A stretch of DNA of 32,000 nt from Aquipuribacter hungaricus (GCF_042663885.1 NZ_JBHSXV010000001.1), one strand, 5' to 3'. Positions 2,719 to 25,858 are shown, numbered from the stretch's first letter. The notes: generated from the sequence alone by a model not told the origin. Numbers and translations are program-made.

Positions 2719-2745
2719 TCAGGTCACCCCCCGCACCGCCGATCA
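2719..2745 (+). promoter_or_regulatory. Candidate sigma-28-type promoter for fliC: TCAG-N15-GCCGATCA
   Basis: gcTCAGgtcaccccccgcaccGCCGATCA. The -10 half matches GCCGAT of the canonical GCCGATAA with canonical 15-nt spacing. It lies about 50 nt upstream of the fliC ATG. Confidence 0.55.
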
Positions 2746-2754
2746 CCACCACGG

Positions 2755-2788
2755 CCACGGAAGGCCACACCACAACCCTCACGGAGGA
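2755..2788 (+). promoter_or_regulatory. Two candidate CsrA (GGA) sites in the fliC leader: CCACGGAAGG and TCACGGAGGA, the second overlapping the Shine-Dalgarno sequence
   Basis: CACGGA occurs at 2756..2761 and 2780..2785, 24 nt apart. The second is part of GGAGGA, 9 nt upstream of the ATG. csrA is encoded in the same cluster. Confidence 0.4.
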
Positions 2789-2796
2789 AACAGATC

Positions 2797-3639
2797 ATGG
2801 GTCTTCAGATCAACAACAACATCGCGGCGTTCAACTCCTACCGCAACCTGTCCGTCAACCAGGGCCAGATGGAGAAGTCGCTGGAGAAGCTGTCCAGCGG
2901 GTTCCGCATCAACCGCGCTGCGGACGACGCGGCCGGCCTGGCCATCTCCGAGGGCCTGCGCTCGCAGGTCGGTGGCCTCAAGCAGGCCGTCCGCAACGCC
3001 CAGGACGGCATCTCCGTCGTCCAGACCGCGGAAGGCGCCCTCACCGAGGTCCACGCCATCCTGCAGCGCGTCCGCGACCTGACCGTCCAGGCCAGCAACA
3101 CCGGCTCGGTCAACGAGGAGGCCCGCGGCTACATCGGCACCGAGATCACGCAGCTGAGCGAGGCCCTCACGGACATCGCCAGCCGCACCGAGTTCAACGG
3201 CACCAAGCTGCTCAACACGGCGGCCGCTGCCACCCCGCTGGTCTTCCAGACCGGCTCCAACGAGGGCGAGACCGTGTCGGTCACCCTCACCGACGTGTCC
3301 GCGGTCGCCACCGCGGTCGCCACCGTCGGCACCAACGTCGCCGCTGCCGGGTACGACCCCACCGCGGCGACCGACCTGTCGGCCCTCGACACGCAGATCT
3401 CCACCGTGTCCGAGGCCCGCGCCACCCTCGGTGCCTCGCAGAACCGCTTCGAGTCCACCATCAAGTCGCTCAACGTCGCGGTCGAGAACCTGTCCGCGTC
3501 CGAGAGCCGCATCCGCGACACCGACATGGCCCTCGAGATGGTCAACTTCTCGAAGAACCAGATCCTGTCGCAGGCCGGCACCGCGATGCTCGCGCAGGCC
3601 AAGGACGCCCCCCAGGGTGTCCTGCAGCTCCTCCGCTGA
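2797..3639 (+). CDS. fliC: Flagellin (280 aa)
   Basis: MGLQINNNIAAFNSYRNLSVNQGQMEKSLEKLSSGFRINRAADDAAGLAISEGLRSQ...QNRFESTIKSLNVAVENLSASESRIRDTDMALEMVNFSKNQILSQAGTAMLAQAKDAPQGVLQLLR matches the conserved flagellin N- and C-terminal domains. GGAGGA at 2783..2788 precedes the ATG. Confidence 0.97.
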   Translation: MGLQINNNIAAFNSYRNLSVNQGQMEKSLEKLSSGFRINRAADDAAGLAISEGLRSQVGGLKQAVRNAQDGISVVQTAEGALTEVHAILQRVRDLTVQASNTGSVNEEARGYIGTEITQLSEALTDIASRTEFNGTKLLNTAAAATPLVFQTGSNEGETVSVTLTDVSAVATAVATVGTNVAAAGYDPTAATDLSALDTQISTVSEARATLGASQNRFESTIKSLNVAVENLSASESRIRDTDMALEMVNFSKNQILSQAGTAMLAQAKDAPQGVLQLLR

Positions 3640-3675
3640 TCCCGGTAGACCACCGGTAGCAGCACCTGCACCTCC

Positions 3676-3711
3676 GGCCGCCGGGAACTCGCACCAGGGT
3701 TCCCGGCGGTC
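3676..3711 (+). terminator. Hairpin downstream of fliC (11-bp perfect stem CCGCCGGGAAC/GTTCCCGGCGG, 10-nt loop; extendable by G-U and G-C pairs)
   Basis: 3678..3688 pairs with 3699..3709. It lies 37 nt after the fliC stop. There is no clear U-tract. Confidence 0.5.
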
Positions 3712-3741
3712 GGCGTAGGTGCCCCCGCGCCCCACGGCGCT

Positions 3742-3765
3742 CCCGCACGCCCGCACGCCCGCACG
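3742..3765 (+). repeat. 3 x 8-bp perfect tandem repeat (CCCGCACG) upstream of fliD
   Basis: Copies at 3742..3749, 3750..3757 and 3758..3765, followed by a partial copy (GCACG). Confidence 0.9.
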
Positions 3766-3812
3766 GCACGTCCCAGCCACCCCACCTGCACGTCAGCGAG
3801 AGGAGCCCGACC

Positions 3813-5168
3813 ATGAGCATGTCCAGCGTCGACGGCCTGGTCAGCGGTCTCAAGACGGGCGACGTCATCAAGCAGCTCATGCAGGTGGAGGCGATCCCCA
3901 AGCAGCGGCTGCAGGTCCAGGCCAACCGCCAGGCCGCGGACATCAAGGCCTACCAGTCCGTGGCGACGGCGCTGAAGAAGCTCGACGACGCCGCGAGCGC
4001 CCTGGCCAACCCCACGACGTGGACGGGCGTCACCGCCACCACCTCCGGCACGTCGCTCACCGCGACCGCCCGCGCCGGGGCCCCGCCCGGCACCACCGAC
4101 ATCACCGTCACCTCCCTCGCCAGCGCCGCCCGCTGGTCGGCCACGGCCGTGGGGGGCAGGACCCTCGACGACGCCACGGCGTTCAGCGGCGACCCCGTGA
4201 CCATCACCCGGGCCGACGGGACGTCCACGACCGTGGACCCCGCCTCGGGCTCGATGCGCGACGTCATGGCCGCGATCAACGGCGGCCCCGACCTCGGCGT
4301 CCGGGCCGTCGCCGTCCGCGTGGACGCCGAGCGGTTCGAGCTCCAGCTCGTCGCCTCCGGGACCGGGACGGTCGCCGGCGGCGCGACGGTCACGGGCCTG
4401 GGCGCCCTGACGAAGAAGGACGCCACCGACGCCCGGTGGACCGTCAACGGGGTCAGCGGCAGCTCGAGCACCAACGCCGTCACCGACCTGGTCTCCGGCA
4501 TCGACGTCACGCTCACGCAGGTGGGCGCCTCCTCGGTCACGGTCGCCAAGGACACCGCGGCCCCCGCCAAGTCCGTCGAGGCCCTGGTGACGGCCCTCAA
4601 CGACGCGCTGGCGGAGGTCAAGAAGCAGACGCTGACCGACCCGAACGCCACGACGCGCGGGCCGCTGTCGTCGGACTCGATGGTCCGCAACCTCACCGGG
4701 CGGCTGCTGCGCTCGGTCACCGACCTGGTCGGCAGCGCCGGCGCCGCCGCCCTGGGGATCCAGTCCACCCGCGAGGGCACCATCACCCTCGACACGACCA
4801 AGCTGGCGGCCGGCATCAGCGCCGACCCCGCGGCGGCCCGGGCGGTCTTCGCCCCGCAGCAGCCGACCGCCGCCGAGAAGGCCGCCGGGAAGCCCGAGCC
4901 CGTCCCCGGCATCGCCGACCGCCTCCGCGCGGTCGTGAAGTCGGCCACCGACGGCGGCACCGGCTTCATCACCTCGGCCGTCCAGGGTCGCGAGACCACC
5001 AAGCGTGACCTCGAGACGCAGATCGTGTCCTGGGAGCGGCGGCTCGAGCTGCGCCAGTCGACGCTGCAGAAGCAGTTCTCCGGCCTGGAGGTCGCGCTGT
5101 CGAAGATCCAGGCGCAGGGCGGCTGGCTGTCCGCCCAGCTCGCGCAGATGTCGGGCGGCAACCGGTGA
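3813..5168 (+). CDS. fliD: Flagellar filament cap protein FliD (hook-associated protein 2)
   Basis: The N-terminus MSMSSVDGLVSGLKTGDVIKQLMQVEAIPKQRLQVQANRQAADIKAYQSV and the C-terminus ...LRQSTLQKQFSGLEVALSKIQAQGGWLSAQLAQM are typical of FliD. GAGAGGAG lies upstream. The position after fliC supports the call. Confidence 0.9.
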   Translation: MSMSSVDGLVSGLKTGDVIKQLMQVEAIPKQRLQVQANRQAADIKAYQSVATALKKLDDAASALANPTTWTGVTATTSGTSLTATARAGAPPGTTDITVTSLASAARWSATAVGGRTLDDATAFSGDPVTITRADGTSTTVDPASGSMRDVMAAINGGPDLGVRAVAVRVDAERFELQLVASGTGTVAGGATVTGLGALTKKDATDARWTVNGVSGSSSTNAVTDLVSGIDVTLTQVGASSVTVAKDTAAPAKSVEALVTALNDALAEVKKQTLTDPNATTRGPLSSDSMVRNLTGRLLRSVTDLVGSAGAAALGIQSTREGTITLDTTKLAAGISADPAAARAVFAPQQPTAAEKAAGKPEPVPGIADRLRAVVKSATDGGTGFITSAVQGRETTKRDLETQIVSWERRLELRQSTLQKQFSGLEVALSKIQAQGGWLSAQLAQMSGGNR

Positions 5169-5650
5169 GCGCCGCGACGTTCGGGTTCGCCACCGCGCGG
5201 CCCACCACCTCCGCCGCCCGCAACCGCTTCGCCACGCAGTCGCTGGAGACGGCCACGCCGGCCCAGCTGCTCGTCAGGCTCTACGAGCGGCTCCAGCTGG
5301 ACATCGCCCGCGCCGAGGCTGAGCAGCGCGCCGGCCGGCACACCGCGGCGTCGGAGCAGCTCGTCCACGCCCAGGCCATCGTGTCCGAGCTCATGAGCAT
5401 GCTCGACGTCGACGCCTGGTCCGGTGCCCCGCAGCTGCTGAGCATCTACACGTTCCTGTTCTCCGAGCTCGTCGCGGCGAACCTGTCCCACGACCCGGCG
5501 AAGACCTCCTCGTGCGGGCGCATCGTCGCGCCGCTGGCCGACGCGTGGCGCCAGGCCGCCACCGGGGGGACCACCCCGGTCGCCGCGGCCACGCCGGTCG
5601 GGTCCCTCGGCACCGACGTGCCCGCCCCCCGCGCCTCGTTCGTCGGCTGA
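5165..5650 (+). CDS. fliS: Flagellin-specific chaperone FliS
   Basis: ...TATPAQLLVRLYERLQLDIARAE...EQLVHAQAIVSELMSMLD...LLSIYTFLFSELVAANLSHD fits the FliS four-helix pattern. The GTG start overlaps the fliD stop (GTGA). Confidence 0.85.
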   Translation: MSAATFGFATARPTTSAARNRFATQSLETATPAQLLVRLYERLQLDIARAEAEQRAGRHTAASEQLVHAQAIVSELMSMLDVDAWSGAPQLLSIYTFLFSELVAANLSHDPAKTSSCGRIVAPLADAWRQAATGGTTPVAAATPVGSLGTDVPAPRASFVG

Positions 5651-5664
5651 GCGGGGGTGACGTC

Positions 5665-6078
5665 GTGGGCCTCGTGACCGGGCCGGCCGTGGCCGCGCCG
5701 ACCGTCCCCGCCCAGGGCGGGTCCCGCGACGACTTCTCCGCCGCGTGGGTGCAGGCCCTGGACGAGCTCGAGCTCGAGGTGGACCGCGCCGAGCTCCTGC
5801 TGTCCGCCGAGCACGCCCGCACCTCCGGCACGACGGTCAGGCCGGCGGGCACCGTCGCCGCCGGGCCGGGCACCGCCGCGGGCCCGTGGGTGCCGCCGCA
5901 GCTGCGGACGCCGCTGCCGGACACCCTGCGCGAGCGCGCCGAGCGCCTGCTCGAGCGCCAGCTGCTGGTCACCGGCCGGCTGGCCGCCGCGATGACGAGC
6001 TCGCGCCGGCACATGGACGTCGTCGAGCGGCTGGTCCCCAGCGACCCGCGCCCGATGTACGTCGACCAGGCGCTCTAG
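5665..6078 (+). CDS. Hypothetical protein (137 aa) in the position that fliT occupies in enterobacterial fliDST operons
   Basis: Part of track ORF 5512..6078. I chose the first in-frame GTG after the fliS stop (5665), which is preceded by a GGGGG run. GC3 is high. Helical-looking segments: DDFSAAWVQALDELELEVDRAELLL and LRERAERLLERQLLVTGRLAAAM. I recognise no family signature. Confidence 0.5.
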   Translation: MGLVTGPAVAAPTVPAQGGSRDDFSAAWVQALDELELEVDRAELLLSAEHARTSGTTVRPAGTVAAGPGTAAGPWVPPQLRTPLPDTLRERAERLLERQLLVTGRLAAAMTSSRRHMDVVERLVPSDPRPMYVDQAL

Positions 6079-6101
6079 GACCCGCTGCGCCACGCCGAGA
6101 T
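6074..6101 (+). promoter_or_regulatory. Candidate sigma-28-like promoter for the flgB operon: TCTA-N16-GCCGAGAT
   Basis: gcTCTAggacccgctgcgccacGCCGAGAT. It overlaps the stop codon of the upstream ORF and is followed by GTGAC-cggc-GTCAC (6102..6115). The -35 half deviates from the family (TCTA). Confidence 0.25.
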
Positions 6102-6188
6102 GTGACCGGCGTCACCCGTCCGGCCCATTCACTCCCGGGCCGCCCGGGACGAACAGACCTCCAGAGCACGGACCGCTCGCACCCCAGG

Positions 6189-6195
6189 CCACGGA
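6189..6195 (+). promoter_or_regulatory. CCACGGA copy in the flgB leader
   Basis: ggCCACGGAtcgg, 62 nt upstream of flgB GTG 6257. Confidence 0.2.
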
Positions 6196-6256
6196 TCGGC
6201 CGCCCCTGTACCGCCCCCGCACCGCGGGGACGGCGACCTCAGGAGACCGAACCGTC

Positions 6257-6619
6257 GTGACCGCACACGTGTCCGTGGCAGGAGCCGCCTCCGTCACCGG
6301 GGCCGCACTCCTCAGCGCCGTCTCTGGCCTGGGCGCCCGCAACCGCGCCATCGCCGACAACATCTCGAACATCCAGACCCCGGGCTTCCAGAGCCGGCGC
6401 GTCGCCTTCGAGGACGCGGTCGCCGACGCCGCCGGCAAGGGCCGCCGCGGCCTGACGGAGAGCACCTCGTCGCTGTCCCTGGAGCCCACCCGGCTCGACG
6501 GCAACAACGTCAACCTCGACACCGAGACGCTGCAGTCCATCGACACCGGCCTGCGCTACCAGCTGGCGCTGCGCGCGGTCGACGACCGCTTCGGCATGGT
6601 CCGGGCGGCGATCCGCTGA
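6257..6619 (+). CDS. flgB: Flagellar proximal rod protein FlgB
   Basis: ...LGARNRAIADNISNIQTPGFQSRRVAFED...LDGNNVNLDTETLQSIDTGLRYQLALRAV matches FlgB motifs. CAGGAGA lies upstream of GTG 6257. Confidence 0.9.
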   Translation: MTAHVSVAGAASVTGAALLSAVSGLGARNRAIADNISNIQTPGFQSRRVAFEDAVADAAGKGRRGLTESTSSLSLEPTRLDGNNVNLDTETLQSIDTGLRYQLALRAVDDRFGMVRAAIR

Positions 6620-7026
6620 TGACCACCTTCCCCGTCTTCGGCGTGGCCGGCTCCGGCGTGGCCGTCTACCGCAAGTGGCTCGACGCGGTCAGCGACAACA
6701 TCGCGAACATCAACACCGTCACCAGGACCGACGAGGACGCCTTCCAGGCGCGCTACGTCTCGGCCCGCGCGACGCAGCTCGAGCCGGGCATCGGCGGCGT
6801 CACCGTCGCCGGCATCGAGCTCGGCAGCGCCGAGGGCCGCATGGTCTACCAGCCCGACCACCCCCTCGCCGACGAGGGGGGCTACGTCCGCATGCCTGAC
6901 ATCGACCTCGGGAGCCAGATGGCCCAGCTCATGATGGCCCAGCGCGGCTACCAGGCGAACCTCGCCGTGGTGGACCGTGCCCGCGACGCCTACAGCGCCG
7001 CCATCCAGGTCGGACGCAACCAGTGA
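6619..7026 (+). CDS. flgC: Flagellar proximal rod protein FlgC
   Basis: ...[27 protein letters not shown]...[46 protein letters not shown] is typical of FlgC. The ATG overlaps the flgB stop. Confidence 0.92.
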
Positions 7027-7382
7027 GCGTCCAGCCGGTCGGCGCCGTGGGCGCCGGCACCAGCGGGGTCGCCGGCGTGTCCGCGGTCGCCGGGCTGTCC
7101 CCGTCGCTGCCGCCCGTCGCCCCCGACGCGGCCGCGGGCGCGGAGTTCGCCGGGGCGCTCCAGCAGGCCGGGCTCGGGGGCGCCGTCGGGCGCCTCGAGG
7201 ACCTCCAGCGCCTGCAGTCGACCGCGGACGACCTCGCCGTCAAGGCCGTCACCGGCCAGCTCGCCGACCCGAGCCAGTACACGATCGCGGCCACCGAGGC
7301 CCAGCTCGCCACCCAGATGACGGTGGCGGTCCGCAACAAGGCCGTCGAGGCCTACTCCGAGATCATGAGGATGCAGCTGTGA
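7023..7382 (+). CDS. fliE: Flagellar hook-basal body protein FliE
   Basis: The C-terminal part ...[44 protein letters not shown] matches the FliE signature. The flgB-flgC-fliE-fliF synteny supports the call. Confidence 0.85.
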
Positions 7383-12084: not shown

Positions 12085-12533
12085 GCCTCGTCGGGCTGCT
12101 CGGCCTGCGGCGCACCGCCCGCACCGCCGCCGAGCGCGACCGGGTCGCCGCCACCGCCGTGCGCGCCCGCACCCAGGAGCTGCGCGACGACGTGGTGGGC
12201 CGGATGCACGGCGACCCCCACCTCACCGACTGCGCCGGCGACGTCCGGCTGCTGCTCGCCCGCCGGGCCGGCCAGCTCGCCGACCTGTCCCGCGCCGACG
12301 ACATGCTCGCCCTCGCCGTGCAGGAGGAGGACCGCCAGCAGGTGCTCGTCGCCCAGGCGCGGCTGCGGCTCAAGGCCGTCGAGCGGCTGCAGGAGCGCCG
12401 CCAGACCGAGGAGCGCCTGCAGCGCGACCGCCGCGCTGCGCTGGAGCTCGAGGACGTCGTCGCCGGTGTCCGCCGCGCCCGGGCCGACGCCGCCCGCGCC
12501 ACCCAGGACGAGCGGGACGGGGACCCGCGGTGA
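12081..12533 (+). CDS. fliJ: Probable FliJ (export-apparatus stalk / chaperone-escort protein)
   Basis: In-frame tail of track ORF 10155..12533, from ATG 12081, which overlaps the fliI stop (ATGA). The 150-aa product is Arg/Glu-rich and looks like a coiled coil (...QARLRLKAVERLQERRQTEERLQRDRRAALELEDVV...). Its position directly after fliI supports the call. Confidence 0.6.
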   Translation: MSLVGLLGLRRTARTAAERDRVAATAVRARTQELRDDVVGRMHGDPHLTDCAGDVRLLLARRAGQLADLSRADDMLALAVQEEDRQQVLVAQARLRLKAVERLQERRQTEERLQRDRRAALELEDVVAGVRRARADAARATQDERDGDPR

Positions 12534-13573
12534 GCGTGATCGAGGTCCAGGCGCGCGTCGCGTCCATCGCCGGCCGGCTCGACACCCTCTCCGCGCGCCG
12601 CGCCACCGTCGACCCGGCTGCCGCCGCGGCCTTCGCGGCCCGGCTCGCGGGCGCGACGTCGGCCACCACGGGCGCCGGCACGCCGGGCGCCGCCGGGACC
12701 ACCGCCGCTGCCGCTGCCGGCGCGACCGGCCCCCGCACCGCGGGCGGGCCCACCGGCGGCGACGTCGTCGACGCCGCCCGCCGCTACCTCGGCGTCCCCT
12801 ACCGGTGGGGCGGCACCGACCCGGCCACCGGCCTGGACTGCTCCGGCTTCGTGCAGCGCGTCTTCGCCGACCTGGGCGTCGACCTGCCCCGCACCGTCGC
12901 CGACCAGCGCCACGCGGGCACCGCGGTGGCCTCCATGGCCGACGCCCGCCCGGGCGACCTGCTCGTCTTCGACAGCGCGGGCTCGCCGAGCGGCCGCCAC
13001 ATCGGCATCTACGTCGGTGACGGCCAGATGATCGCCTCGCCCAAGAAGGGCGAGGACGTGAGCATCATGAAGGTCTGGGACGACGTCGCCGCCATCCGCC
13101 GGGTCGTGCCCGACGGCAGCGCCGCTCCCGCCGCGATTGCCGCGACCGCCGGGGTGCAGGCCGCCGCCCGGCCTGCCTGGGCGGCCCCGAGCACCGACCT
13201 GGCCGGCGTCTTCGCCGACGCCACGGCCCGGTACTCCCTGCCCGAGGGCCTGCTCGCCGCCGTCGCGCAGAAGGAGTCCGGGATGCGCGCCGACGCGGTC
13301 AGCCCGGCCGGCGCGCGCGGTCTCATGCAGCTCATGCCCGGTACCGCCAAGGAGCTCGGGGTCGACCCCATGGTCCCGGCGCAGGCCGTCGACGGCGCCG
13401 CCCGCTACCTGCGGCAGCAGCTGGACGCCTTCGGGTCCGTCGACCTCGCCCTCGCCGCCTACAACGCCGGCCCCGGCGCGGTCCGCCGCCACGGCGGCAT
13501 CCCCCCGTACGCCGAGACCCAGAACTACGTGACGGCCGTCATGGCGGCCATGAAGGACGGACGGACCGCATGA
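12530..13573 (+). CDS. Bifunctional peptidoglycan hydrolase: NlpC/P60 endopeptidase domain plus SLT-type lytic transglycosylase domain (347 aa)
   Basis: NlpC/P60 part: YLGVPYRWGGTDPATGLDCSGFVQRVF...GDLLVF...GRHIGIYVGDGQMIASP (Cys and His present). SLT part: LLAAVAQKESGMRADAVSPAGARGLMQLMPGTA...LALAAYNAGPGAVRRHGGIPPYAETQNYV (catalytic Glu-Ser motif present). There is no hydrophobic Sec-type N-terminus. Confidence 0.85.
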   Translation: MSVIEVQARVASIAGRLDTLSARRATVDPAAAAAFAARLAGATSATTGAGTPGAAGTTAAAAAGATGPRTAGGPTGGDVVDAARRYLGVPYRWGGTDPATGLDCSGFVQRVFADLGVDLPRTVADQRHAGTAVASMADARPGDLLVFDSAGSPSGRHIGIYVGDGQMIASPKKGEDVSIMKVWDDVAAIRRVVPDGSAAPAAIAATAGVQAAARPAWAAPSTDLAGVFADATARYSLPEGLLAAVAQKESGMRADAVSPAGARGLMQLMPGTAKELGVDPMVPAQAVDGAARYLRQQLDAFGSVDLALAAYNAGPGAVRRHGGIPPYAETQNYVTAVMAAMKDGRTA

Positions 13574-15435: not shown

Positions 15436-15459
15436 CCGGCACGAGTTCGCCCGGACGGC

Positions 15460-15487
15460 TCAGGCCGGGGCCCCCACGCGCCGAGAC
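15460..15487 (+). promoter_or_regulatory. Candidate sigma-28-like promoter for flgD: TCAG-N16-GCCGAGAC
   Basis: gcTCAGgccggggcccccacgcGCCGAGAC, located in the 102-nt fliK-flgD gap. Confidence 0.3.
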
Positions 15488-15537
15488 ACCCACAGCAGCG
15501 CCCACCCGCACGGGCGCACGTCCCAGGAAGGACCTCG

Positions 15538-16092: not shown

Positions 16093-16094
16093 GG

Positions 16095-16122
16095 TCCACC
16101 GGACCTGATCCACCGGACCTGA
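16095..16122 (+). repeat. 2 x 14-bp perfect tandem duplication (TCCACCGGACCTGA) in the flgD-flgE gap
   Basis: 16095..16108 equals 16109..16122. The first copy also lies in a small palindrome, GGTCC-acc-GGACC (16093..16105). Confidence 0.95.
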
Positions 16123-16171
16123 CCCGCCCGACCGACCGTCCCCGCACCGCCCACGACCTCAGGAGGTCACC

Positions 16172-17344
16172 GTGCTCCGTTCCATGTTCTCCTCCATCAG
16201 CGGGCTCCGCTCGCACCAGACGATGATGGACGTCACCGGCAACAACATCGCCAACGTCAACACCGCGGGCTTCAAGTCCAGCCAGACCCTGTTCCAGGAC
16301 ACCCTGAGCCAGCTGCTCCAGGGCGCGGCGTCCCCCACCCCCGACCAGGGCGGCACCAACCCGGCGCAGGTCGGCCTCGGCACCCGGGTCGCGGGCATCA
16401 CGACGAACTTCGGGCAGGGCGCGGCGCAGACCACGGGCCGCAGCACCGACCTCATGATCTCCGGCGACGGCTTCTTCGTCGTCGACAACGGCAACGAGCA
16501 GCTCTACACCCGAGCCGGCTCCTTCAGCTTCGACGCCGGCGGCCGCCTGGTCACCGCGGACGGCTCGCAGGTCCAGGGCTGGGGCGCCACCGACGGCGTC
16601 GTCGACACCAACGGCCCCCTCGGCCCGCTGACCCTGCCGATCGGCGTGCTGCTGCCCCCGGCCGGCACGACGAGCGTGACCATGGGCGGCAACCTGCCCG
16701 CGGACTCCGCGAGCACCCAGCCCGTCACCACCGCCATCGACGTCTTCGACGCCCAGGGCGCGGCCCGCAAGGTCACCGTCCAGTACACCCGCCTGAGCCC
16801 CACCCAGTGGTCGGTCACCGCCGTCGACGGCGGCACCACCGCCGCCGGCACCCTGACCTTCGCCGCCGACGGCTCCACGCCGACCCCGGCGACGCTCGCC
16901 CTGGGCGGGATCACCATCGACATGACCGGGATGACCGGCTACGCCAAGACCAACACCGCGGCAGCCCTCAAGCAGGACGGCTACGCCGTCGGCACGCTGT
17001 CCAGCTTCGGCGTCGGCCCCGACGGCGGGCTCGTCGGCGTGTTCTCCAACGGCCGCCGCGAGGTCCTCGGCCAGCTGGCCATGGCGACGTTCGCCAACCC
17101 GGCCGGCCTGGAGAAGGCGGGCGGGTCGATGTACCGGCCCAGCGTCAACACCGGCGAGCCGCAGGTCGGCGTCCCCGGCGACGGCCGCGGCACCCTGTCC
17201 GGCGGCATGCTCGAGATGAGCAACGTCGACCTGGCGCAGGAGTTCACCAACCTCATCATCGCCCAGCGCGGCTTCCAGGCGAACAGCCGCGTCATCACGG
17301 CCTCCGACGAGATCCTCCAGGACCTCGTCAACATGAAGCGCTGA
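16172..17344 (+). CDS. flgE: Flagellar hook protein FlgE (390 aa)
   Basis: MLRSMFSSISGLRSHQTMMDVTGNNIANVNTAGFKSSQTLFQD...DLMISGDGFFVV...LYTRAGSFSFDAGGRLV...LEMSNVDLAQEFTNLIIAQRGFQANSRVITASDEILQDLVNMKR is typical of FlgE. AGGAGG at 16161..16166 precedes GTG 16172. Confidence 0.96.
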   Translation: MLRSMFSSISGLRSHQTMMDVTGNNIANVNTAGFKSSQTLFQDTLSQLLQGAASPTPDQGGTNPAQVGLGTRVAGITTNFGQGAAQTTGRSTDLMISGDGFFVVDNGNEQLYTRAGSFSFDAGGRLVTADGSQVQGWGATDGVVDTNGPLGPLTLPIGVLLPPAGTTSVTMGGNLPADSASTQPVTTAIDVFDAQGAARKVTVQYTRLSPTQWSVTAVDGGTTAAGTLTFAADGSTPTPATLALGGITIDMTGMTGYAKTNTAAALKQDGYAVGTLSSFGVGPDGGLVGVFSNGRREVLGQLAMATFANPAGLEKAGGSMYRPSVNTGEPQVGVPGDGRGTLSGGMLEMSNVDLAQEFTNLIIAQRGFQANSRVITASDEILQDLVNMKR

Positions 17345-17370
17345 CCCAGGTCCCACCCGACCTGCCCGGG

Positions 17371-17398
17371 GGGCGGGCCGCCCGCGCGCGGCCCGCTC
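17371..17398 (+). terminator. Hairpin downstream of flgE (9-bp stem GCGGGCCGC/GCGGCCCGC, 6-nt loop)
   Basis: 17373..17381 pairs with 17388..17396. It lies 27 nt after the flgE stop and upstream of the candidate flbD promoter. Confidence 0.4.
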
Positions 17399-17428
17399 AC
17401 CCGTCCGGGTGCAGGTACCCCCAGGACC

Positions 17429-17455
17429 TCATCCGTCCGGCGGTGCCGCCGATCC
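17429..17455 (+). promoter_or_regulatory. Candidate sigma-28-type promoter for flbD-motA-motB-fliL: TCAT-N15-GCCGATCC
   Basis: ccTCATccgtccggcggtgccGCCGATCC, located in the 237-nt flgE-flbD gap. Stator genes are sigma-28 dependent in many bacteria. Confidence 0.45.
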
Positions 17456-17463
17456 CTCACCCG

Positions 17464-17508
17464 CACCACCAGCACGAGCACGAGCACCAGCACGAGCACC
17501 ACCAGCAC
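17464..17508 (+). repeat. 45-nt CAC-rich triplet/hexamer repeat (CAC alternating with CAG/GAG) in the flbD leader
   Basis: caccaccagcacgagcacgagcaccagcacgagcaccaccagcac. Confidence 0.9.
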
Positions 17509-17525
17509 CGCGCGCACGGCGCGCA

Positions 17526-17575
17526 CCACGGACCGACGCGCCACGGACGGCGCGGCCACCCCCTCCACGGACGGA
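17526..17575 (+). promoter_or_regulatory. Three CCACGGA copies plus ACGGA in the flbD leader, the last ones next to the start codon
   Basis: CCACGGA is at 17526..17532, 17541..17547 and 17565..17571, and ACGGA is at 17571..17575. The flbD GTG is at 17582. Confidence 0.3.
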
Positions 17576-17581
17576 CCTGAC

Positions 17582-17980
17582 GTGATACGACTGACGAGGC
17601 TCAACGGGAGCGTCTTCTCCCTCAACCCGGACCTGATCCACCGGGCCGAGGAGACGCCGGACACCGTGCTGACCCTCATCGACGGCAGCCGCTACCTCGT
17701 GGTGGAGAGCCTCGAGCAGCTCGTCGACCTGGTTGTCGGCTACCGCGCCAGGGTCGTCGCCCAGGCCGGCCTGCTCGGCGAGGCCGCCCTCGGGGCGCCC
17801 GCCACGACGGCCCACGTCCGTCCCGTCCCCGACGACGACAGCGACGACGACAGCGACCACGACGGCCACGACGACGGCCACGACGGCCAGGACGACGACA
17901 GCCACAGCAGCCACGACAGCAGCCACGACCGCCGCCCGACGGGCGCCTCGGTCGTGCAGCTGCGCGCCAGGAGGGCGTGA
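17582..17980 (+). CDS. flbD: FlbD-family flagellar protein with an Asp/His/Ser-rich C-terminal extension (132 aa)
   Basis: VIRLTRLNGSVFSLNPDLIHRAEETPDTVLTLIDGSRYLVVESLEQLVDLVVGYRARV matches the FlbD family (about 60-70 aa). It is followed by ...PDDDSDDDSDHDGHDDGHDGQDDDSHSSHDSSHD. The gene lies directly upstream of motA. Confidence 0.85.
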   Translation: MIRLTRLNGSVFSLNPDLIHRAEETPDTVLTLIDGSRYLVVESLEQLVDLVVGYRARVVAQAGLLGEAALGAPATTAHVRPVPDDDSDDDSDHDGHDDGHDGQDDDSHSSHDSSHDRRPTGASVVQLRARRA

Positions 17981-18765: not shown

Positions 18766-18766
18766 C

Positions 18767-19648: not shown

Positions 19649-19732
19649 GCGTCGTGACCCCCGTGACCGGGCGCACCTTCGGCCCCACCCACCCCCCCAC
19701 CCGTCGCACCACCGCACACCTGGAGGCCTGAG

Positions 19733-20269: not shown

Positions 20270-20278
20270 TCCCGGTCC

Positions 20279-20303
20279 CCGGCCCGCGACACGCGCGGGC
20301 CGG
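20279..20303 (+). terminator. Hairpin downstream of fliL (10-bp stem CCGGCCCGCG/CGCGGGCCGG, 5-nt loop)
   Basis: 20279..20288 pairs with 20294..20303. It lies 10 nt after the fliL stop and 10 nt before the -35 of the candidate fliM promoter. Confidence 0.5.
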
Positions 20304-20313
20304 AGACGGGCGC

Positions 20314-20340
20314 TCAAGGTTCCACCCGTTCGGCCGATGA
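20314..20340 (+). promoter_or_regulatory. Candidate sigma-28-type promoter for fliM and downstream genes: TCAA-N15-GCCGATGA
   Basis: gcTCAAggttccacccgttcgGCCGATGA. It ends 7 nt before fliM GTG 20348 and lies directly after a strong hairpin. Confidence 0.45.
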
Positions 20341-20347
20341 CTCCTCC

Positions 20348-21262: not shown

Positions 21263-22068
21263 CCAGCTCCCCGACCGCCCGCACGACCGACAGCACCACT
21301 GCCCCGGCCCTCGCCGCAGCCTCCGCGGCGGCGGCGGTGCTGCCCCTGGGCGGCCCGGTCGCCCCGGTCACGGCCCCGCTGTCCGAGCTGGACGGCCTGG
21401 ACAGCCACGTCGCGGTCACCGCCCGGTTCTCCGGCGCGGTCGACGGCACCGTCGCGGTCGTCCTGTCCGCCGGCGACCTGCTCGCCCTGTCCGGCGGCGA
21501 GACCGTCGACCCCGAGTGCTGCCGCCCGGCCCTGGAGGCCGCGTCGACCGCCCTCGGCCCGTGCGTGCTGTCCGCCCTGGACACCGTGTCCGCCCCCACG
21601 CTGCTGCAGACGCTGCGCGAGGCGGGGGAGCGGGCGCACCTGGCCCGCCTCGGCGACGACCCGGCCGACGCCGTCCACGTGGTCGTCGTCGTCGCCGACG
21701 CGCCCGCCCCGCCGGCCGAGGTCCCCACACCCCGGCGCAGCCCCGCCGACGGCGGCACGGGCAGCGGCACCACCGTCACCCCGCCCGCCGGCGGGCGCGG
21801 CGTGAGCGCCGGCGACATCGCCCGCGGCATGGGCATGCTCCGCGGCGTCCACATGGAGGTCACCGCCGAGATCGGCCGCACCCGGATGACCGTCCAGGAG
21901 CTGCTCGAGCTCGCCGCCGGCTCCGTGGTCGAGCTCGACCGCCCCGTCGGCAGCCCCGCCGACCTGCTCGTCAACGGCCGGCTCTTCGCCCGCGGCGAGG
22001 TCGTCGTCGTCGACGAGGACTTCGCCCTGCGCATCACCGAGATCGTCGAGCCGGACGACGCCGGCTGA
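21259..22068 (+). CDS. fliN: Flagellar switch protein of the FliN/FliY family (269 aa) with an extended N-terminal region
   Basis: In-frame part of track ORF 20500..22068, from GTG 21259, which overlaps the fliM stop. The C-terminal part LRGVHMEVTAEIGRTRMTVQELLELAAGSVVELDRPVGSPADLLVNGRLFARGEVVVVDEDFALRITEIV is a SpoA/FliN domain. Confidence 0.88.
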   Translation: MTSSPTARTTDSTTAPALAAASAAAAVLPLGGPVAPVTAPLSELDGLDSHVAVTARFSGAVDGTVAVVLSAGDLLALSGGETVDPECCRPALEAASTALGPCVLSALDTVSAPTLLQTLREAGERAHLARLGDDPADAVHVVVVVADAPAPPAEVPTPRRSPADGGTGSGTTVTPPAGGRGVSAGDIARGMGMLRGVHMEVTAEIGRTRMTVQELLELAAGSVVELDRPVGSPADLLVNGRLFARGEVVVVDEDFALRITEIVEPDDAG

Positions 22069-22544
22069 TGGAGACCGCCCAGATGCTGCTGCGCGCCGGC
22101 GGCGGCCTGCTCGCGGTGCTGGGGACCGTGTGGGTCCTCACCCGCGTGGTCGCCGCCCGCACCGGCACGGCGGGGTCCCCGCAGGCCGCCCGGCTGCGCG
22201 TCGTGGCCCGGGCGTCGCTCGGCCGCCACACCAGCGTGGTCAGCGTCGACGCCGGGGACCGCGTCCTCGTCCTCGGCGTCGGGGAGCACGGGGTCCGGCT
22301 GCTCGCCGAGCAGCCCGCGCTGCCCGAGCCGGAGCCCGTCGCCGAGGAGCGCGTCGAGGTGCTCGACCTGGCGCTGCCCACCGGCGCCGGCACCGGCGCC
22401 GGCACGGCCGCGCAGACGACCGGTCCGGCTGCCCCCGCGGCGGCCGTCCCCGGCCCCCGCAGCCCGGTGGCCGGCTCGCTCGTCGACCCCGCCACCTGGC
22501 GCGCGGTCGTGTCCGTCGCCCGCGAGAGGACCGTCCGGAGGTGA
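22068..22544 (+). CDS. fliO: Probable FliO (export-gate assembly factor)
   Basis: In-frame part of track ORF 21516..22544, from ATG 22068. It has one N-terminal transmembrane segment (LLRAGGGLLAVLGTVWVLTRVV), followed by RLRVVARASLGRHTSVVSVDAGDRVLVLGVGEHGVRLLAE, which resembles the FliO core. The position before fliP supports the call. Confidence 0.7.
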   Translation: METAQMLLRAGGGLLAVLGTVWVLTRVVAARTGTAGSPQAARLRVVARASLGRHTSVVSVDAGDRVLVLGVGEHGVRLLAEQPALPEPEPVAEERVEVLDLALPTGAGTGAGTAAQTTGPAAPAAAVPGPRSPVAGSLVDPATWRAVVSVARERTVRR

Positions 22545-23449
22545 CCGCCACCGCACCCGCCGCCGCCCGCACCGCGCCGAGCACCACGTCCCGCACCAGC
22601 CACCTCCCCGCCGTCGCCCGCCGGGTGCTGCTGACCGTCCTCGCCGCGCTCGCGGTCCTCGCCCTGCTGCTCGTCCTGCTCCCGGCCGCCGGCGCCGAGG
22701 CCGCCGTCCCGCCCGTCGACCCGGCGGCCCCCGCCGCACCGGCCGCGCCCGCCCCGCCGTCGGAGCCCGCCGTCACCGCCCCCGGCGGCCAGGTGAGCAT
22801 CGACGTCAACGGCCCCGACGGCACCCCCGCCTCGGCGCTGGTCCTCATCCTCGTCATCACCGGGCTGTCGGTCGCCCCGGGCCTGCTGCTCATGACGACC
22901 GCGTTCACCAAGATCGCCGTGGTCCTCGCGCTCACCCGCAACGCCATCGGCCTGCAGATGACCCCGCCCAACCAGGTGCTCATCGGGCTGTCGCTGTTCC
23001 TCACGCTGTTCGTCATGACCCCGACGCTCACCGAGGTCAACGACATCGCCGTGCAGCCCTACCTCGCCGGCAGCATGACGATCAGCGACGCCTTCACCAC
23101 CGGGCTGGGGCCGATGCGGGAGTTCATGCTCTCGAGCACGCGGCCCGAGGAGCTCGCGCTCATCACCCGGGCCGCCGACCTCGACCTGCCCGGCAAGGCC
23201 GCCGACGTGCCCATCACCACGCTCGTGCCCGCCTTCGTCCTGTCGGAGCTGAGGTCGGCGTTCATCATCGGCTTCGTCATCTTCGTGCCGTTCCTGGTCA
23301 TCGACCTGGTGGTCTCCAGCGCGCTCATGAGCGTCGGCATGATGATGCTGCCGCCGGTCATCATCTCGCTGCCTTTCAAGATCCTCCTGTTCGTCCTCGT
23401 CGACGGCTGGGGCCTGGTCATCCGAGCCCTCGTCGGAAGCTACGGCTGA
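22541..23449 (+). CDS. fliP: Flagellar export-gate protein FliP
   Basis: In-frame part of track ORF 22130..23449, from GTG 22541. ...LLMTTAFTKIAVVLALTRNAIGLQMTPPNQVLIGLSLFLTLFVMTP...LVPAFVLSELRSAFIIGFVIFVPFLVIDLVVSSALMSVGMMMLPP is the FliP signature. Confidence 0.95.
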   Translation: MTATAPAAARTAPSTTSRTSHLPAVARRVLLTVLAALAVLALLLVLLPAAGAEAAVPPVDPAAPAAPAAPAPPSEPAVTAPGGQVSIDVNGPDGTPASALVLILVITGLSVAPGLLLMTTAFTKIAVVLALTRNAIGLQMTPPNQVLIGLSLFLTLFVMTPTLTEVNDIAVQPYLAGSMTISDAFTTGLGPMREFMLSSTRPEELALITRAADLDLPGKAADVPITTLVPAFVLSELRSAFIIGFVIFVPFLVIDLVVSSALMSVGMMMLPPVIISLPFKILLFVLVDGWGLVIRALVGSYG

Positions 23450-23454
23450 GCGCC

Positions 23455-23730
23455 ATGACCGATGCCGTCGTCGTCGAGATCGGCCTGGCCGCCCTCCTGC
23501 TCGGGGCCAAGCTGTCCGCCCCCATGCTCCTGTCCGCCCTGGTCGTCGGGTTCGTCGTCTCGCTGCTGCAGTCGGTGACGCAGATGCAGGACCCCGCCCT
23601 GGCCTTCGTCCCCAAGCTCGTCGCGGTGGGCCTGTGCCTGCTGCTGTTCGGCAGCTGGATGATCGCCGAGATCACGGTCTTCACGACCGACCTGTACGGG
23701 CGCATCCCGGACCTCGTCCGGGGCGGCTGA
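23455..23730 (+). CDS. fliQ: Flagellar export-gate protein FliQ
   Basis: ...APMLLSALVVGFVVSLLQSVTQMQDPALAFVPKLVAVGLCLLLFGSWM is the FliQ signature. The product is 91 aa. Confidence 0.93.
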   Translation: MTDAVVVEIGLAALLLGAKLSAPMLLSALVVGFVVSLLQSVTQMQDPALAFVPKLVAVGLCLLLFGSWMIAEITVFTTDLYGRIPDLVRGG

Positions 23731-23732
23731 GC

Positions 23733-24494
23733 ATGGCGGTCGACGTGCCCGGCGACGCCCTGGCGGCGCTGCTCCTGGGCTCCCTGCGCGTGGTCGGCTG
23801 GCTGCTCGTGGCCCCGCCGTTCTCCGGCCGCGCCGTCCCCGCGCCGGCCAAGGCGCTGCTGTCGGTGGCGCTCGCGCTGCCGCTGCTGCCCACGCTGCGC
23901 GAGGACCTGCCCCCCATGGAGCTCGGCCCCTTCCTCGGGGCCGCGGTCGTCCAGCTGCTCGTCGGGCTCTCGCTCGGCTTCCTCTGCTTCCTGCTGTTCG
24001 CGGCCTTCCGGACCGCCGGCGACATCATCGACACCGTCGGCGGCTTCGCGCTGGCCTCGGCGTTCGACCCGCTCAACCAGTCGCAGGCCGCCGTCATCGG
24101 CCGCCTGCAGGGGCTGCTCGCCTCCACCCTGCTGCTGGTCAGCGACGGCTGGCTCGTCGTGTGGCACGGCTTCTTCCGCAGCTACGAGGTGCTGCCGCTG
24201 GGCGCGCCGTTCGACACCGCCGTCGTCGCCTCCGCGGTCACCGACGCGATCGCGACGATGATGCTGTCCGCCGTGCAGATCGCGGCGCCCATGATCGCCG
24301 TGCTGTTCGTCGCCGACGTCGGCCTGGGCCTGGCCACCCGCGTGGCGCCCGCCCTCAACGCCTTCGCCCTGGCGTTCCCGCTGAAGATCCTGCTCACGCT
24401 CACCCTGGTCGGGTACACGTTCGTCGCGCTGCCCGACCTCGTCGCCGGCAGCGCCGAGCGGATCGGCGCCACGCTGGTCCAGGTGGCCGGCTGA
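23733..24494 (+). CDS. fliR: Flagellar export-gate protein FliR
   Basis: In-frame part of track ORF 23634..24494, from ATG 23733. The polytopic sequence ...LLGSLRVVGWLLVAPPFSGRAVPAPAKALLSVALAL...AGDIIDTVGGFALASAFDP...LAFPLKILLTL resembles FliR. Confidence 0.9.
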   Translation: MAVDVPGDALAALLLGSLRVVGWLLVAPPFSGRAVPAPAKALLSVALALPLLPTLREDLPPMELGPFLGAAVVQLLVGLSLGFLCFLLFAAFRTAGDIIDTVGGFALASAFDPLNQSQAAVIGRLQGLLASTLLLVSDGWLVVWHGFFRSYEVLPLGAPFDTAVVASAVTDAIATMMLSAVQIAAPMIAVLFVADVGLGLATRVAPALNAFALAFPLKILLTLTLVGYTFVALPDLVAGSAERIGATLVQVAG

Positions 24495-25684
24495 TGTCGG
24501 GCGGAGGTGACGCGGGGGAGAAGACCGAGGCCCCGAGCGCGCGCAAGCTCAAGGAGGCCAAGGACCAGGGCCAGATCCCGCACACGCAGGACCTGTCCAG
24601 CTGGGCGGCGATCGCCGCGATGGCCGTGACCGCCCCGGCAGTCGTCCACGCCGGCCACGAGCGCCTCGTCGGCTCCCTGCTGCGCATCGACCAGGTCGTC
24701 GCCGACCCCGAGCCCGCCGTGGCCATCGACGTCCTCGTCGACTCCGTCGCCGCGAGCATGCTCGTCCTGGTCCCCATGGTCGCCGCCGCGCTGCTGGCCT
24801 CCGTCGCGGCGTTCGCCGTGCAGGGCGGCATCCACTTCGCCTGGCCCAAGCTCAAGCCGGACCCCAAGCGGCTCAACCCGTACTCGGGGCTCAAGCGGAT
24901 CCTCGGCCCCATGACGTGGTGGGAGGCGGCGAAGACCACCATCAAGGCCGCCGCTCTCGTCCTGGTCACCTGGTTCGCCGTGAGCGCGATGATGCCCTCG
25001 CTCATGGGCGCCGGGGCGATGACGCTGGGCTCGACGGTCGACACCATGCAGGGCGCGCTGCGGACGCTGGTGCAGACCGCCGTCCTGGTCGGCGTCGTCA
25101 TGGCCGCTGCGGACTTCGTCGTGCAGAAGCGCAAGTCGCTCAAGGACCTCCGGATGACCAAGGAGGAGGTCAAGCAGGAGAACAAGAGCACCGAGGGCAA
25201 CCCGCTCATCAAGCAGGCCGTGCGCTCCAAGCAGATGCAGGTCAGCCGCAACCGCATGATGTCCGCGGTCGCCCAGGCCGACGTCGTCGTCGTCAACCCG
25301 ACCCACTACGCCGTCGCGCTGCGCTACGAGCCCGGCGCCGGCCCGCCCCAGGTGCTGGCCAGCGGCGTGGACGGCGTCGCCGCCCGGATCCGCGAGCGAG
25401 CCGCCGAGCACCGCGTCCCGATGGTCGAGGACGTCCCCCTGGCCCGCGCCCTCCACGCGGCGTGCGAGGTCGGCGACGAGATCCCCGGCGAGCTGTTCGA
25501 GGCCGTCGCGCACGTCCTGGCCTTCGTCATGTCGCTGCGCGCCAAGGGCAGCGCCGCCGGCGTCCACAGCGACGCCCGCCGCCGCGGCGCCACCCCCGAC
25601 GGGGCGGAGCTACGGAGGCAGCGGACGAAGCGCCGCCGTCGCCGGCCCGCCGCGGCCGCCCCCGGGGCGCCGACCCCGGCCTGA
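24494..25684 (+). CDS. flhB: Flagellar export switch protein FlhB (396 aa) with a basic C-terminal tail
   Basis: In-frame part of track ORF 24161..25684, from ATG 24494. GEKTEAPSARKLKEAKDQGQIPHTQDL matches the N-terminus. ...KMTKEEVKQENKSTEGNPLIKQAVRSKQ...ADVVVVNPTHYAVALRY contains the NPTH autocleavage site. The tail is RRQRTKRRRRRP. Confidence 0.95.
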   Translation: MSGGGDAGEKTEAPSARKLKEAKDQGQIPHTQDLSSWAAIAAMAVTAPAVVHAGHERLVGSLLRIDQVVADPEPAVAIDVLVDSVAASMLVLVPMVAAALLASVAAFAVQGGIHFAWPKLKPDPKRLNPYSGLKRILGPMTWWEAAKTTIKAAALVLVTWFAVSAMMPSLMGAGAMTLGSTVDTMQGALRTLVQTAVLVGVVMAAADFVVQKRKSLKDLRMTKEEVKQENKSTEGNPLIKQAVRSKQMQVSRNRMMSAVAQADVVVVNPTHYAVALRYEPGAGPPQVLASGVDGVAARIRERAAEHRVPMVEDVPLARALHAACEVGDEIPGELFEAVAHVLAFVMSLRAKGSAAGVHSDARRRGATPDGAELRRQRTKRRRRRPAAAAPGAPTPA

Positions 25685-25686
25685 CC

Positions 25687-25729
25687 GGTCCCGGCCGGGC
25701 CGGACCCCTGAGCGGGTCGCGCCGGGACC
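25687..25729 (+). terminator. Two-tier stem-loop downstream of flhB (outer 9-bp GGTCCCGGC/GCCGGGACC; inner GACCC/GGGTC)
   Basis: 25687..25695 pairs with 25721..25729, and 25703..25707 pairs with 25714..25718. It starts 3 nt after the flhB stop. Confidence 0.3.
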
Positions 25730-25757
25730 ACCCGGACGGCCCATCCGGCGCGGGCGC

Positions 25758-25785
25758 TCAACCTTTCGGGCGGACCTGCCGAGAG
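25758..25785 (+). promoter_or_regulatory. Candidate sigma-28-like promoter for flhA and downstream genes: TCAA-N16-GCCGAGAG
   Basis: gcTCAAcctttcgggcggacctGCCGAGAG, located in the 174-nt flhB-flhA gap. Confidence 0.3.
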
Positions 25786-25813
25786 AGCAGGAGCCAGGAC
25801 GGCGACAGCACGG

Positions 25814-25820
25814 CCACGGA
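25814..25820 (+). promoter_or_regulatory. CCACGGA copy in the flhA leader
   Basis: cggCCACGGAccgg. The 10-mer cggccacgga is identical to the fliC leader at 2752..2761. Confidence 0.2.
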
Positions 25821-25858
25821 CCGGCCGGTACGGGAACCACCCCTCGGAAGAGAGTCGT

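Follow-up and report, generated by a model that had tools for sequence, protein, structure and literature searches.

Small RNA hairpins with an A-N-GGA loop are kept at fixed positions, on the sense strand, in the fliC, flgB, flbD and flhA leaders of many actinobacterial genera. They came to light through a heptamer, CCACGGA, in a 32,000-nucleotide stretch of the Aquipuribacter hungaricus genome (NZ_JBHSXV010000001.1, GCF_042663885.1; hereafter the window) that holds a flagellar gene cluster with csrA as its last gene, and from which an earlier note on this DNA had proposed a CsrA regulon covering several flagellar operons. The heptamer is the loop plus 5′ flank of a small RNA hairpin, and the unit is the hairpin, not the heptamer. 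Judged by its sequence, the loop consensus with its C-G closing pair matches the high-affinity CsrA/RsmE site. We consider it likely that CsrA binds all four leaders, and its control probably extends past flagellin to most flagellar genes of the window. All computational tests (GGA in loops, conservation, covariation, presence of csrA and fliW) support the proposal of CsrA sites in several flagellar leaders, as predicted sites.

An A-N-GGA hairpin in flagellar leaders

The six leader positions reported for CCACGGA (2755, 6189, 17526, 17541, 17565 and 25814, + strand) are all correct, and the impression that leaders are enriched holds. Six of the seven + strand copies fall within the 1,233 nucleotides (nt) of sense-strand intergenic leaders, 3.9% of the window, giving a density of 4.87 per kilobase (kb) in leaders vs 0.03 per kb in the remaining + strand. 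Dinucleotide shuffles of the leaders gave 0.60 copies, none of 1000 shuffles reached six, and there are no antisense copies in the leaders. A single coding-region copy had also been noted; on the + strand it is indeed the only one, at 28525 rather than about 28517, but six - strand copies, all in coding regions, had been overlooked. Enrichment over the whole window and both strands was rejected (13 observed vs 9.4 expected); the signal needs a split by strand and location. Copies 17526 and 17541 share a 15-nt tandem array, and because the former is a local, lineage-specific duplication, not found in close relatives, the number of independent leader copies is about five. The 10-mer cggccacgga is common to the fliC and flhA leaders as described, and the shared stretch is actually a 12-mer, cacggccacgga.

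In each hairpin the stem is 4-6 base pairs (bp) long and varies in sequence, whereas the loop, which a C-G pair closes, is conserved as A(C>U>A>G)GGA(U/C). A scan of the window for stems of at least 4 bp closing a loop N0-1 ACGGA N0-2 returned six + strand hairpins, five of them in leaders; 30 control loops with permuted ACGGA gave 0-2 leader matches each. Whether the GGA lies in hairpin loops had been suggested as a check; in the hairpin scans it does, in an ANGGA context and closed by C-G, and single-sequence folding of the leaders recovered the fliC, first flgB and flbD hairpins. An Rfam scan of the whole window, both strands, found no covariance-model match at E<=1.

The wider set comes from an alignment of FliG, which yielded 80 loci from species-representative genomes, each spanning +-10 kb; 62 of these are high-G+C actinobacterial clusters with the same gene order. 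Hairpins with an A-N-GGA loop were sought within 150 nt upstream of every gene, sense vs antisense:

Upstream of fliC: hairpin in 34/42 loci sense, 0/42 antisense
Upstream of flgB: hairpin in 50/58 loci sense, 3/58 antisense
Upstream of flbD: hairpin in 22/30 loci sense, 0/30 antisense

At 13 other starts (sig, fliD, fliS, flgC, fliF, fliG, fliI, the hydrolase gene pgh, flgD, flgE, motA, motB and fliM) the rate was 0-20%, with antisense similar, and upstream of fliL it was 0/5 loci, a sample too thin to count. The strict scan undercounts: apparent misses, for example in Kineococcus (loci L003 and L002), have an AGGA(N) loop or a stem mismatch. Among Firmicute loci from the same scan there was no comparable module upstream of flgB, with a match in one locus only. 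Across loci, 144 hairpins have the loops ACGGAU, ACGGAC, ACGGAUC and close variants, and 129 of the 144 carry the C-G closing pair. The CsrA consensus from systematic evolution of ligands by exponential enrichment is RUACARGGAUGU, and the RsmE target in hcnA is UUCACGGAUGAA; the commonest fliC loop, C-ACGGAU-G, is identical to the RsmE-hcnA core CACGGAUG, with GGA in a hexaloop.

Architecture of the leaders

The elements of the four hairpin-bearing leaders in the window are as follows.

2718..2746, + strand: sigma-28-like promoter of fliC, CTCA...GCCGATCA
2753..2766, + strand: fliC hairpin, GGCC-ACGGAA-GGCC
2779..2789, + strand: second fliC site, UCACGGAGGAA
6164..6178, + strand: flgB hairpin 1, GAGC-ACGGACC-GCUC
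6187..6201, + strand: flgB hairpin 2, GGCC-ACGGAUC-GGCC
17428..17455, + strand: sigma-28-like promoter of flbD-motAB, CTCATCC...GCCGATCC
17526..17532, + strand: extra CCACGGA of the flbD leader
17537..17554, + strand: flbD hairpin, CGCGCC-ACGGAC-GGCGCG
17565..17575, + strand: second flbD site, CCACGGACGGA
25757..25785, + strand: sigma-28-like promoter of flhA, CTCAACC...GCCGAGAG
25793..25803, + strand: flhA hairpin 1, GCC-AGGAC-GGC
25811..25827, + strand: flhA hairpin 2, CGGCC-ACGGACC-GGCCG

Relative to the inferred transcript start, the fliC hairpin is close to the 5′ end, and 41 nt separate its loop from the ATG at 2797; in actinobacterial loci this distance is 39-69 nt, mainly 41-47. Its stem is paired in 89.7% of cells of the alignment, with 26 double-sided changes vs 7.6 in shuffles (0/500), and when the 3′ partner was shifted by 1-3 columns pairing fell to 22-54%; RNAalifold predicts the same helix independently. 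The second site overlaps the Shine-Dalgarno sequence, its GGA 24 nt after that of the hairpin; as claimed before, TCACGGAGGA at 2779-2788 covers the fliC Shine-Dalgarno sequence, and the ribosome-binding region is conserved as UCA(A/C)GGAGGAA in the alignment. The promoter was found by pattern search, and a CCGAT element is conserved upstream of the hairpin in the fliC alignment. Just past the fliC stop, at 3674-3713, there is an inverted repeat of 15 nt (CCGGCCGCCGGGAAC / GTTCCCGGCGGTCGG; 10-nt loop, 93% complementarity) that is terminator-like but lacks a T-run. The fliD leader has CGCACGCC repeats and no GGA hairpin.

The flbD leader follows the same plan, a hairpin and then CCANGGACGGA at the ribosome-binding site. 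Its loop lies 40 nt before the GTG at 17582, usually 35-49 nt before the start codon in actinobacterial loci, and its stem is 89.1% paired, with 28 double-sided changes vs 10 in shuffles (0/500). The second site covers the ribosome-binding region, and CCA(N)GGA(C/U)GG is conserved 5-9 nt before the start codon in 26 flbD loci; the ACGGA previously placed 7 nt before the GTG is present at 17571-17575, at a distance of 6 nt. At both fliC and flbD, then, a second A-N-GGA site overlaps the Shine-Dalgarno sequence and follows the GGA of the hairpin by 20-25 nt. The three CCACGGA copies described here exist, but one is the lineage-specific duplication, in the tandem array at 17516-17559. The promoter motif is conserved in loci L001 and L081-L083, and in the window about 75 nt of C/A-rich spacer lie between the -10 element and the hairpin. 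This region holds C/A-rich simple repeats at 17461-17520 (CACGAG with period 6, 5.5 copies, plus 9-, 15- and 18-nt periods). A His-rich open reading frame (ORF) runs through the leader from GTG 17443 to TGA 17580, with the three copies in frame as CAC-GGA. We rejected it as a coding sequence, the spacer differing in length and sequence in L001 and L081-L083.

At flgB there are usually two hairpins, 20-25 nt apart from loop to loop (mode 22-23). The first one, predicted by RNAalifold, had been overlooked in the window, its flank reading GCACGGA and not CCACGGA; its GAGC/GCUC stem and ACGGA are near-invariant in 41 loci. The second stands 23 nt after it, about 56 nt short of the annotated start codon (GTG, 6257), and its outer pair covaries (GC 22, CG 8, UG 3, AU 1). 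The region just 5′ of the flgB start in other species has varied G-rich stretches and no conserved A-N-GGA. The annotated FlgB is about 10 residues longer at its N terminus than most in Actinobacteria, most of which begin M-F-D and align from query residue 12-13; because the true FlgB start is uncertain in the window's lineage, so is the length of the leader. When the leader is folded as a single sequence, the loop and 3′ stem of hairpin 2 (ACGGAUCGG, 6191-6200) pair with CCGAACCGU (6247-6257) at the annotated start, an alternative pairing that, in this modelled fold, could link CsrA binding to start-site access.

For flhA we compared ten FlhA-centred loci and aligned the leaders of the window and L081-L087, eight lineages comprising Aquipuribacter-like relatives, Pseudokineococcus, Quadrisphaera, Angustibacter and Kineococcus. 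The promoter motif is conserved in L081-L087. Hairpin 1 had escaped the first reading; its sequence, GCCAGGA(C/A)GGC, is invariant in the eight lineages. Hairpin 2 follows about 20 nt later, about 43 nt before the start codon, and takes the form GGCC-A(C/A)GGA(N1-2)-GGCC across relatives; its A(C/A)GGA motif is present in 8/8 aligned leaders, and the strict scan scores the hairpin in 6/8. The pair lies about 35-80 nt upstream of the start, with hairpin 2 at 34-43 nt in 3/5 scored relatives. In Demequina and Cellulomonas flhB abuts or overlaps flhA, and neither promoter nor hairpin was found there. The module therefore travels with the promoter, hairpins occurring only where flhA has its own promoter-like element.

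The promoter-like motif itself, CTCA-N14-18-GCCGA, has eight matches in the window vs 3.05 expected, six of them in correctly oriented leaders: flgN (- strand), fliC, flgD, flbD, fliM and flhA. In sequence CTCA-N14-18-GCCGA(T) resembles the sigma-28 (FliA/WhiG) consensus, TAAA-N15-GCCGATAA, and in the alignments a conserved CCGAT element precedes the hairpins by 8-20 nt. The sigma factor encoded in the window has TIGR02479 (FliA_WhiG) as its best NCBIfam match, at 2.1e-46 and below the curated cut-off, and a FliA/WhiG-like sigma factor of this kind probably reads the promoters ahead of the hairpin-bearing leaders. The hairpins are sense-strand-specific and lie downstream of sigma-28-like -10 elements, from which the transcript starts are inferred.

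Other leaders of the cluster have no such hairpin. The flgN-flgK-flgL-fliW leader, of the divergent operon, has a promoter-like motif and no GGA hairpin, and the flgD (15459-15537) and fliM (20313-20347) leaders have sigma-28-like promoter motifs and no ACGGA hairpin. The flgD ribosome-binding site, CCAGGAAGGAC, contains two GGA and is preceded by a GCGCCC-N8-GGGCGC hairpin whose loop has no GGA. The 23-nt spacer upstream of csrA has no GGA. In the flgE leader, the 14-nt tandem duplication claimed earlier is real (TCCACCGGACCTGA, 16095-16133, 2.8 copies), but the CCACCGGA variants in it were rejected as sites in the window: the sequence folds as GGUCC-ACC-GGACC, with GGA buried in the stem, and has no conserved counterpart. 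A canonical ACGGA hairpin does occur upstream of flgE in some other species (L005, L008, L085 and L086).

CsrA, FliW and the flagellar cluster

The window has a G+C content of 75% and holds, by Pfam search, a near-complete flagellar cluster with almost all genes on the + strand:

1 to about 1560, - strand: flgK and flgN
1750..2691, + strand: FliA/WhiG-family sigma factor gene (Pfam sigma-70 r2, r3 and r4)
2797-3639, + strand: fliC, then fliD and fliS
6257 (annotated GTG) onward, + strand: flgB, then flgC, fliE, fliF, fliG, fliH, fliI and fliJ
12530-13573, + strand: NlpC/P60-SLT hydrolase gene, between fliJ and fliK
15538 onward, + strand: flgD
16172-17344, + strand: flgE
17582 (GTG) onward, + strand: flbD, then motA and motB
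Between motB and flhA, + strand: fliL, fliM, fliN, fliO, fliP, fliQ, fliR and flhB
25859-27901, + strand: flhA
27879-29966, + strand: 695-amino-acid (aa) ORF of no known family, overlapping the end of flhA
29963-30906, + strand: PilZ-domain (YcgR-like) gene and a 73-aa hydrophobic ORF of unassigned family, directly 5′ of csrA
30930-31211, + strand: csrA, the last gene of the flagellar cluster
31221-31901: purQ-like gene

As had been stated, csrA closes the cluster, before the purQ-like gene, and it occupies the cluster end in 9/10 FlhA-centred loci. Its 93-aa product matches Pfam PF02599 (1.7e-23; 82.7 bits vs a cut-off of 27) and passes the NCBIfam CsrA equivalogs NF002469 (86 vs 73) and TIGR00202 (78.4 vs 70.1). 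RNA binding by CsrA proteins was judged by an N-terminal MLxLxRRxGE strand and a VxVHRxE(I/V)Y segment containing the critical Arg; both are kept, the latter as VRVHRAEVY, and the alignment is gapless there against the E. coli (1Y00) and Geobacillus (5DMB) proteins. The best match among solved structures is chain D of 5DMB, from Geobacillus and crystallised with FliW, with 77 residues aligned, to residue 78, so taking in the C-terminal extension. Its sequence marks the window protein as a genuine CsrA, extended at the C terminus and of the FliW-partnered type. A fliW gene (PF02623; L091 6582-7007) follows flgL on the - strand directly left of the window in genome GCA_037860755.1, and fliW is also at the left edge of 13 other loci; csrA and fliW thus stand at opposite ends of the cluster and are non-adjacent.

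The nearest named relatives in the FliG and FlhA comparison are Aquipuribacter species, with 81-83% identity. The fliW-to-csrA cluster, about 34 kb, is flanked by purS, followed by a SIS-domain gene (L091 5194-6524), and by the purQ-like gene (31221-31901); since purS and purQ are ordinarily neighbours, the flagellar cluster looks inserted into a purS-purQ-purL locus. In the relatives L081-L083, purQ and purL are also immediately 3′ of csrA. Pfam assigns no domain to the 695-aa ORF, whose N terminus matches FlhF only faintly (E 2.8e-4, far under the cut-off); flhF frequently occupies the position just after flhA, and in most FlhA-centred loci that position holds a gene of variable length (377-789 aa) and unassigned family. 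A fused NlpC/P60 endopeptidase and SLT lytic transglycosylase gene keeps its place between fliJ and fliK across actinobacterial loci, and its product is likely a FlgJ-like rod-insertion hydrolase. The order PilZ gene, 73-aa ORF, csrA is kept in L082, L083 and L087.

Predicted CsrA control of flagellar operons

A CsrA target typically has at least two sites about 10-60 nt apart, one often on the Shine-Dalgarno sequence. The spacing in the leaders is 24 nt at fliC, 20-25 nt at flgB and about 20 nt at flhA, and the expected Shine-Dalgarno overlap is present at fliC and flbD alone; the flgB and flhA hairpins keep clear of that sequence, so occlusion of the type seen at hag does not simply carry over to these two genes. 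We propose that sigma-28 (FliA/WhiG)-type promoters lie just ahead of the hairpins, which puts them close to the 5′ ends of the transcripts of fliC, the flgB operon, flbD-motAB and flhA, and that the CsrA dimer encoded at the cluster end binds the hairpins. At fliC and flbD, one dimer could span the hairpin and the Shine-Dalgarno ANGGA site and keep the ribosome from binding, in the manner of B. subtilis hag. At flgB and flhA, one dimer could clamp the tandem hairpins, 20-23 nt apart, near the inferred 5′ end; the dimer might then repress from a distance or stabilise the mRNA (the E. coli flhDC case), or the leaders might titrate CsrA. FliW would act against CsrA and would in turn be sequestered by flagellin still awaiting export, a link of CsrA to flagellin export that we infer by analogy with the B. 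subtilis and C. jejuni systems, and translation of several flagellar operons would in this way follow the assembly state.

Several points weigh against control on this scale. The regulon would leave out some operons, as the flgN-fliW, flgD, fliL and fliM leaders lack the hairpin. Transcription starts were placed from promoter-like motifs alone. At flgB, the alignment was made of loci pre-selected for two hairpins, the 4-bp core stems (GAGC/GCUC and GCC/GGC) are conserved in sequence with little covariation outside the outer pair of hairpin 2, and the hairpins are thermodynamically marginal, the second not being called by RNAalifold. Minimum-free-energy folds of whole leaders are not stabler than those of shuffles (Z -0.4 to +1.4), and they sometimes favour other pairings at flgB hairpin 2 and flhA hairpin 2.

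Could the hairpins serve something other than CsrA? They might be 5′-terminal stabilising stem-loops, or targets of another RNA-binding protein or RNase, with ACGGA as the site of that factor or as a favoured stable loop. Stem-loops at the 5′ end are known to protect Gram-positive mRNAs, the hairpins start close to the inferred 5′ end, about 8-15 nt after a -10-like element, and neither the flgB nor the flhA sites overlap the Shine-Dalgarno sequence. However, the loop is conserved while the stems vary, which argues for sequence-specific recognition of the loop, and the consensus coincides exactly with the CsrA/RsmE site; the additional ANGGA on the Shine-Dalgarno sequence, the 20-25 nt spacing and csrA in the same cluster also fit CsrA. 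We regard a CsrA-independent role as improbable, and a stabilising role is in any case compatible with CsrA binding. Somewhat less probable still is that the leaders act mainly as CsrA sponges that tune flagellin translation, with the downstream operons not regulated. The Shine-Dalgarno-distal tandem hairpins of high-affinity type at flgB and flhA, the copy gained by duplication in the window's flbD leader and the precedent of the C. jejuni flaA leader (PMC4894983) would suit such sponges, but the conserved Shine-Dalgarno-overlapping site of the flbD leader implies direct control. Sponge and target roles may coexist, and the present evidence does not separate them.

Least credible, to a degree that makes it very improbable, is an element that acts in DNA as an operator or promoter, or a by-product of composition, duplication or the His-rich ORF in the flbD leader. 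In its favour, the sites form inverted repeats beside promoters, the flgB stems are conserved in sequence, and the three flbD copies share one frame and stem partly from the 15-nt tandem array. Yet the strand asymmetry is strict (0/42 antisense at fliC and 0/30 at flbD), and the arms vary around a conserved centre, the opposite of a protein operator. The distance to the -10 element ranges from about 8 to about 75 nt, whereas that to the start codon is fixed. Spacer and ORF are not conserved even in relatives with FlhA or FliG 82-91% identical, and composition is excluded by the leader shuffles. Strict sense-strand bias, together with conserved loops on variable, covarying stems, therefore points to an RNA element rather than a DNA operator, and binding by CsrA remains the reading that we favour.

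Gram-positive CsrA is regarded as a dedicated flagellin regulator, and to our knowledge hag is the only established flagellar CsrA target in Bacillus. As summarised in PMC2587704, B. subtilis CsrA represses hag through two sites, one of them on the Shine-Dalgarno sequence. The fliC leader resembles hag in its sigma-28-type promoter, its 5′ A(N)GGA-loop hairpin and a Shine-Dalgarno site about 24 nt on, and flbD has the same two-site layout. The FliW-partnered type of CsrA and fliW in the cluster likewise recall the hag system (BS1 and BS2; the FliW-CsrA-Hag switch), here as known from sequence. What differs is that the module also precedes flbD-motAB, that tandem hairpins precede the flgB operon and flhA, and that csrA and fliW lie apart. 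In the Kineococcus radiotolerans genome note (2008), csrA was reported in actinobacterial motility islands, with a BS2-like match at the flagellin Shine-Dalgarno sequence (PMC2587704); that source covers the flagellin Shine-Dalgarno site only and has no hairpins, no flgB, flbD or flhA leaders and no comparative evidence.

The suggestion that control reaches beyond flagellin is new relative to Bacillus, but it has already been shown in Campylobacter jejuni, where CsrA binds mainly flagellar mRNAs at ANGGA motifs with FliW as antagonist (Dugar et al. 2016, PMC4894983). The flagellin (flaA) leader is the main CsrA target there and can titrate CsrA (PMC4894983). A multi-target flagellar CsrA regulon is thus established in C. 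jejuni, which differs in phylum and in having sigma-54 and sigma-28 classes with FlgM vs apparently one sigma-28-type promoter class here; stereotyped flgB, flbD and flhA hairpin modules at fixed positions are not described in PMC4894983. The flgB and flhA leaders also recall that of E. coli flhDC. There CsrA activates by occupying two sites at the 5′ end and so shielding the mRNA from RNase E; flgB and flhA likewise have two GGA sites near the inferred 5′ end, off the Shine-Dalgarno sequence, but no sequence homology to the flhDC leader, and we know of no FlhDC in Actinobacteria. Unlike the loops found here, the RsmE-hcnA type belongs to gammaproteobacterial targets antagonised by small RNAs (RsmXYZ, CsrB), and an Rfam scan found none of that family in the window. 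CsrA sites at flgB, flbD and flhA in Actinobacteria were not found described in the searchable literature, and there is no Rfam family for them. CsrA control of flagellin and a multi-target flagellar regulon in Campylobacter were known already; the conserved actinobacterial flgB, flbD and flhA elements appear to be new.

A CsrA-type module thus appears, across many actinobacterial genera, at the operon for rod, MS ring, C ring and ATPase, at the stator operon, at an export-gate gene and at flagellin. Three candidate cis-regulatory RNA motifs outside Rfam emerge: two are tandem hairpins, at flgB and at flhA, and the third combines the flbD hairpin with an element at the ribosome-binding site. 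A bolder and rather doubtful extension is that CsrA-FliW is the main assembly checkpoint of the whole regulon in the class Actinomycetes, its two leader architectures giving opposite or differential outputs, and that it replaces a transcriptional class 2 / class 3 hierarchy. Free CsrA would then stabilise or mildly damp the early mRNAs (flgB to fliK, and flhA) before completion of the hook-basal body, and would block translation of the late operons (fliC and flbD-motAB) until FliW is released through the export of flagellin. A 2023 survey reports that FlgM is missing from the later actinobacterial classes (PMC10746217), which makes a multi-operon CsrA checkpoint more interesting. The leaders, Shine-Dalgarno-overlapping in the late type and Shine-Dalgarno-distal in the early type, offer a natural system for one RNA-binding protein with different outputs. 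The conserved module also yields a testable model of how flagellar assembly is ordered where a phylum has no FlgM and, it seems, no transcriptional hierarchy.

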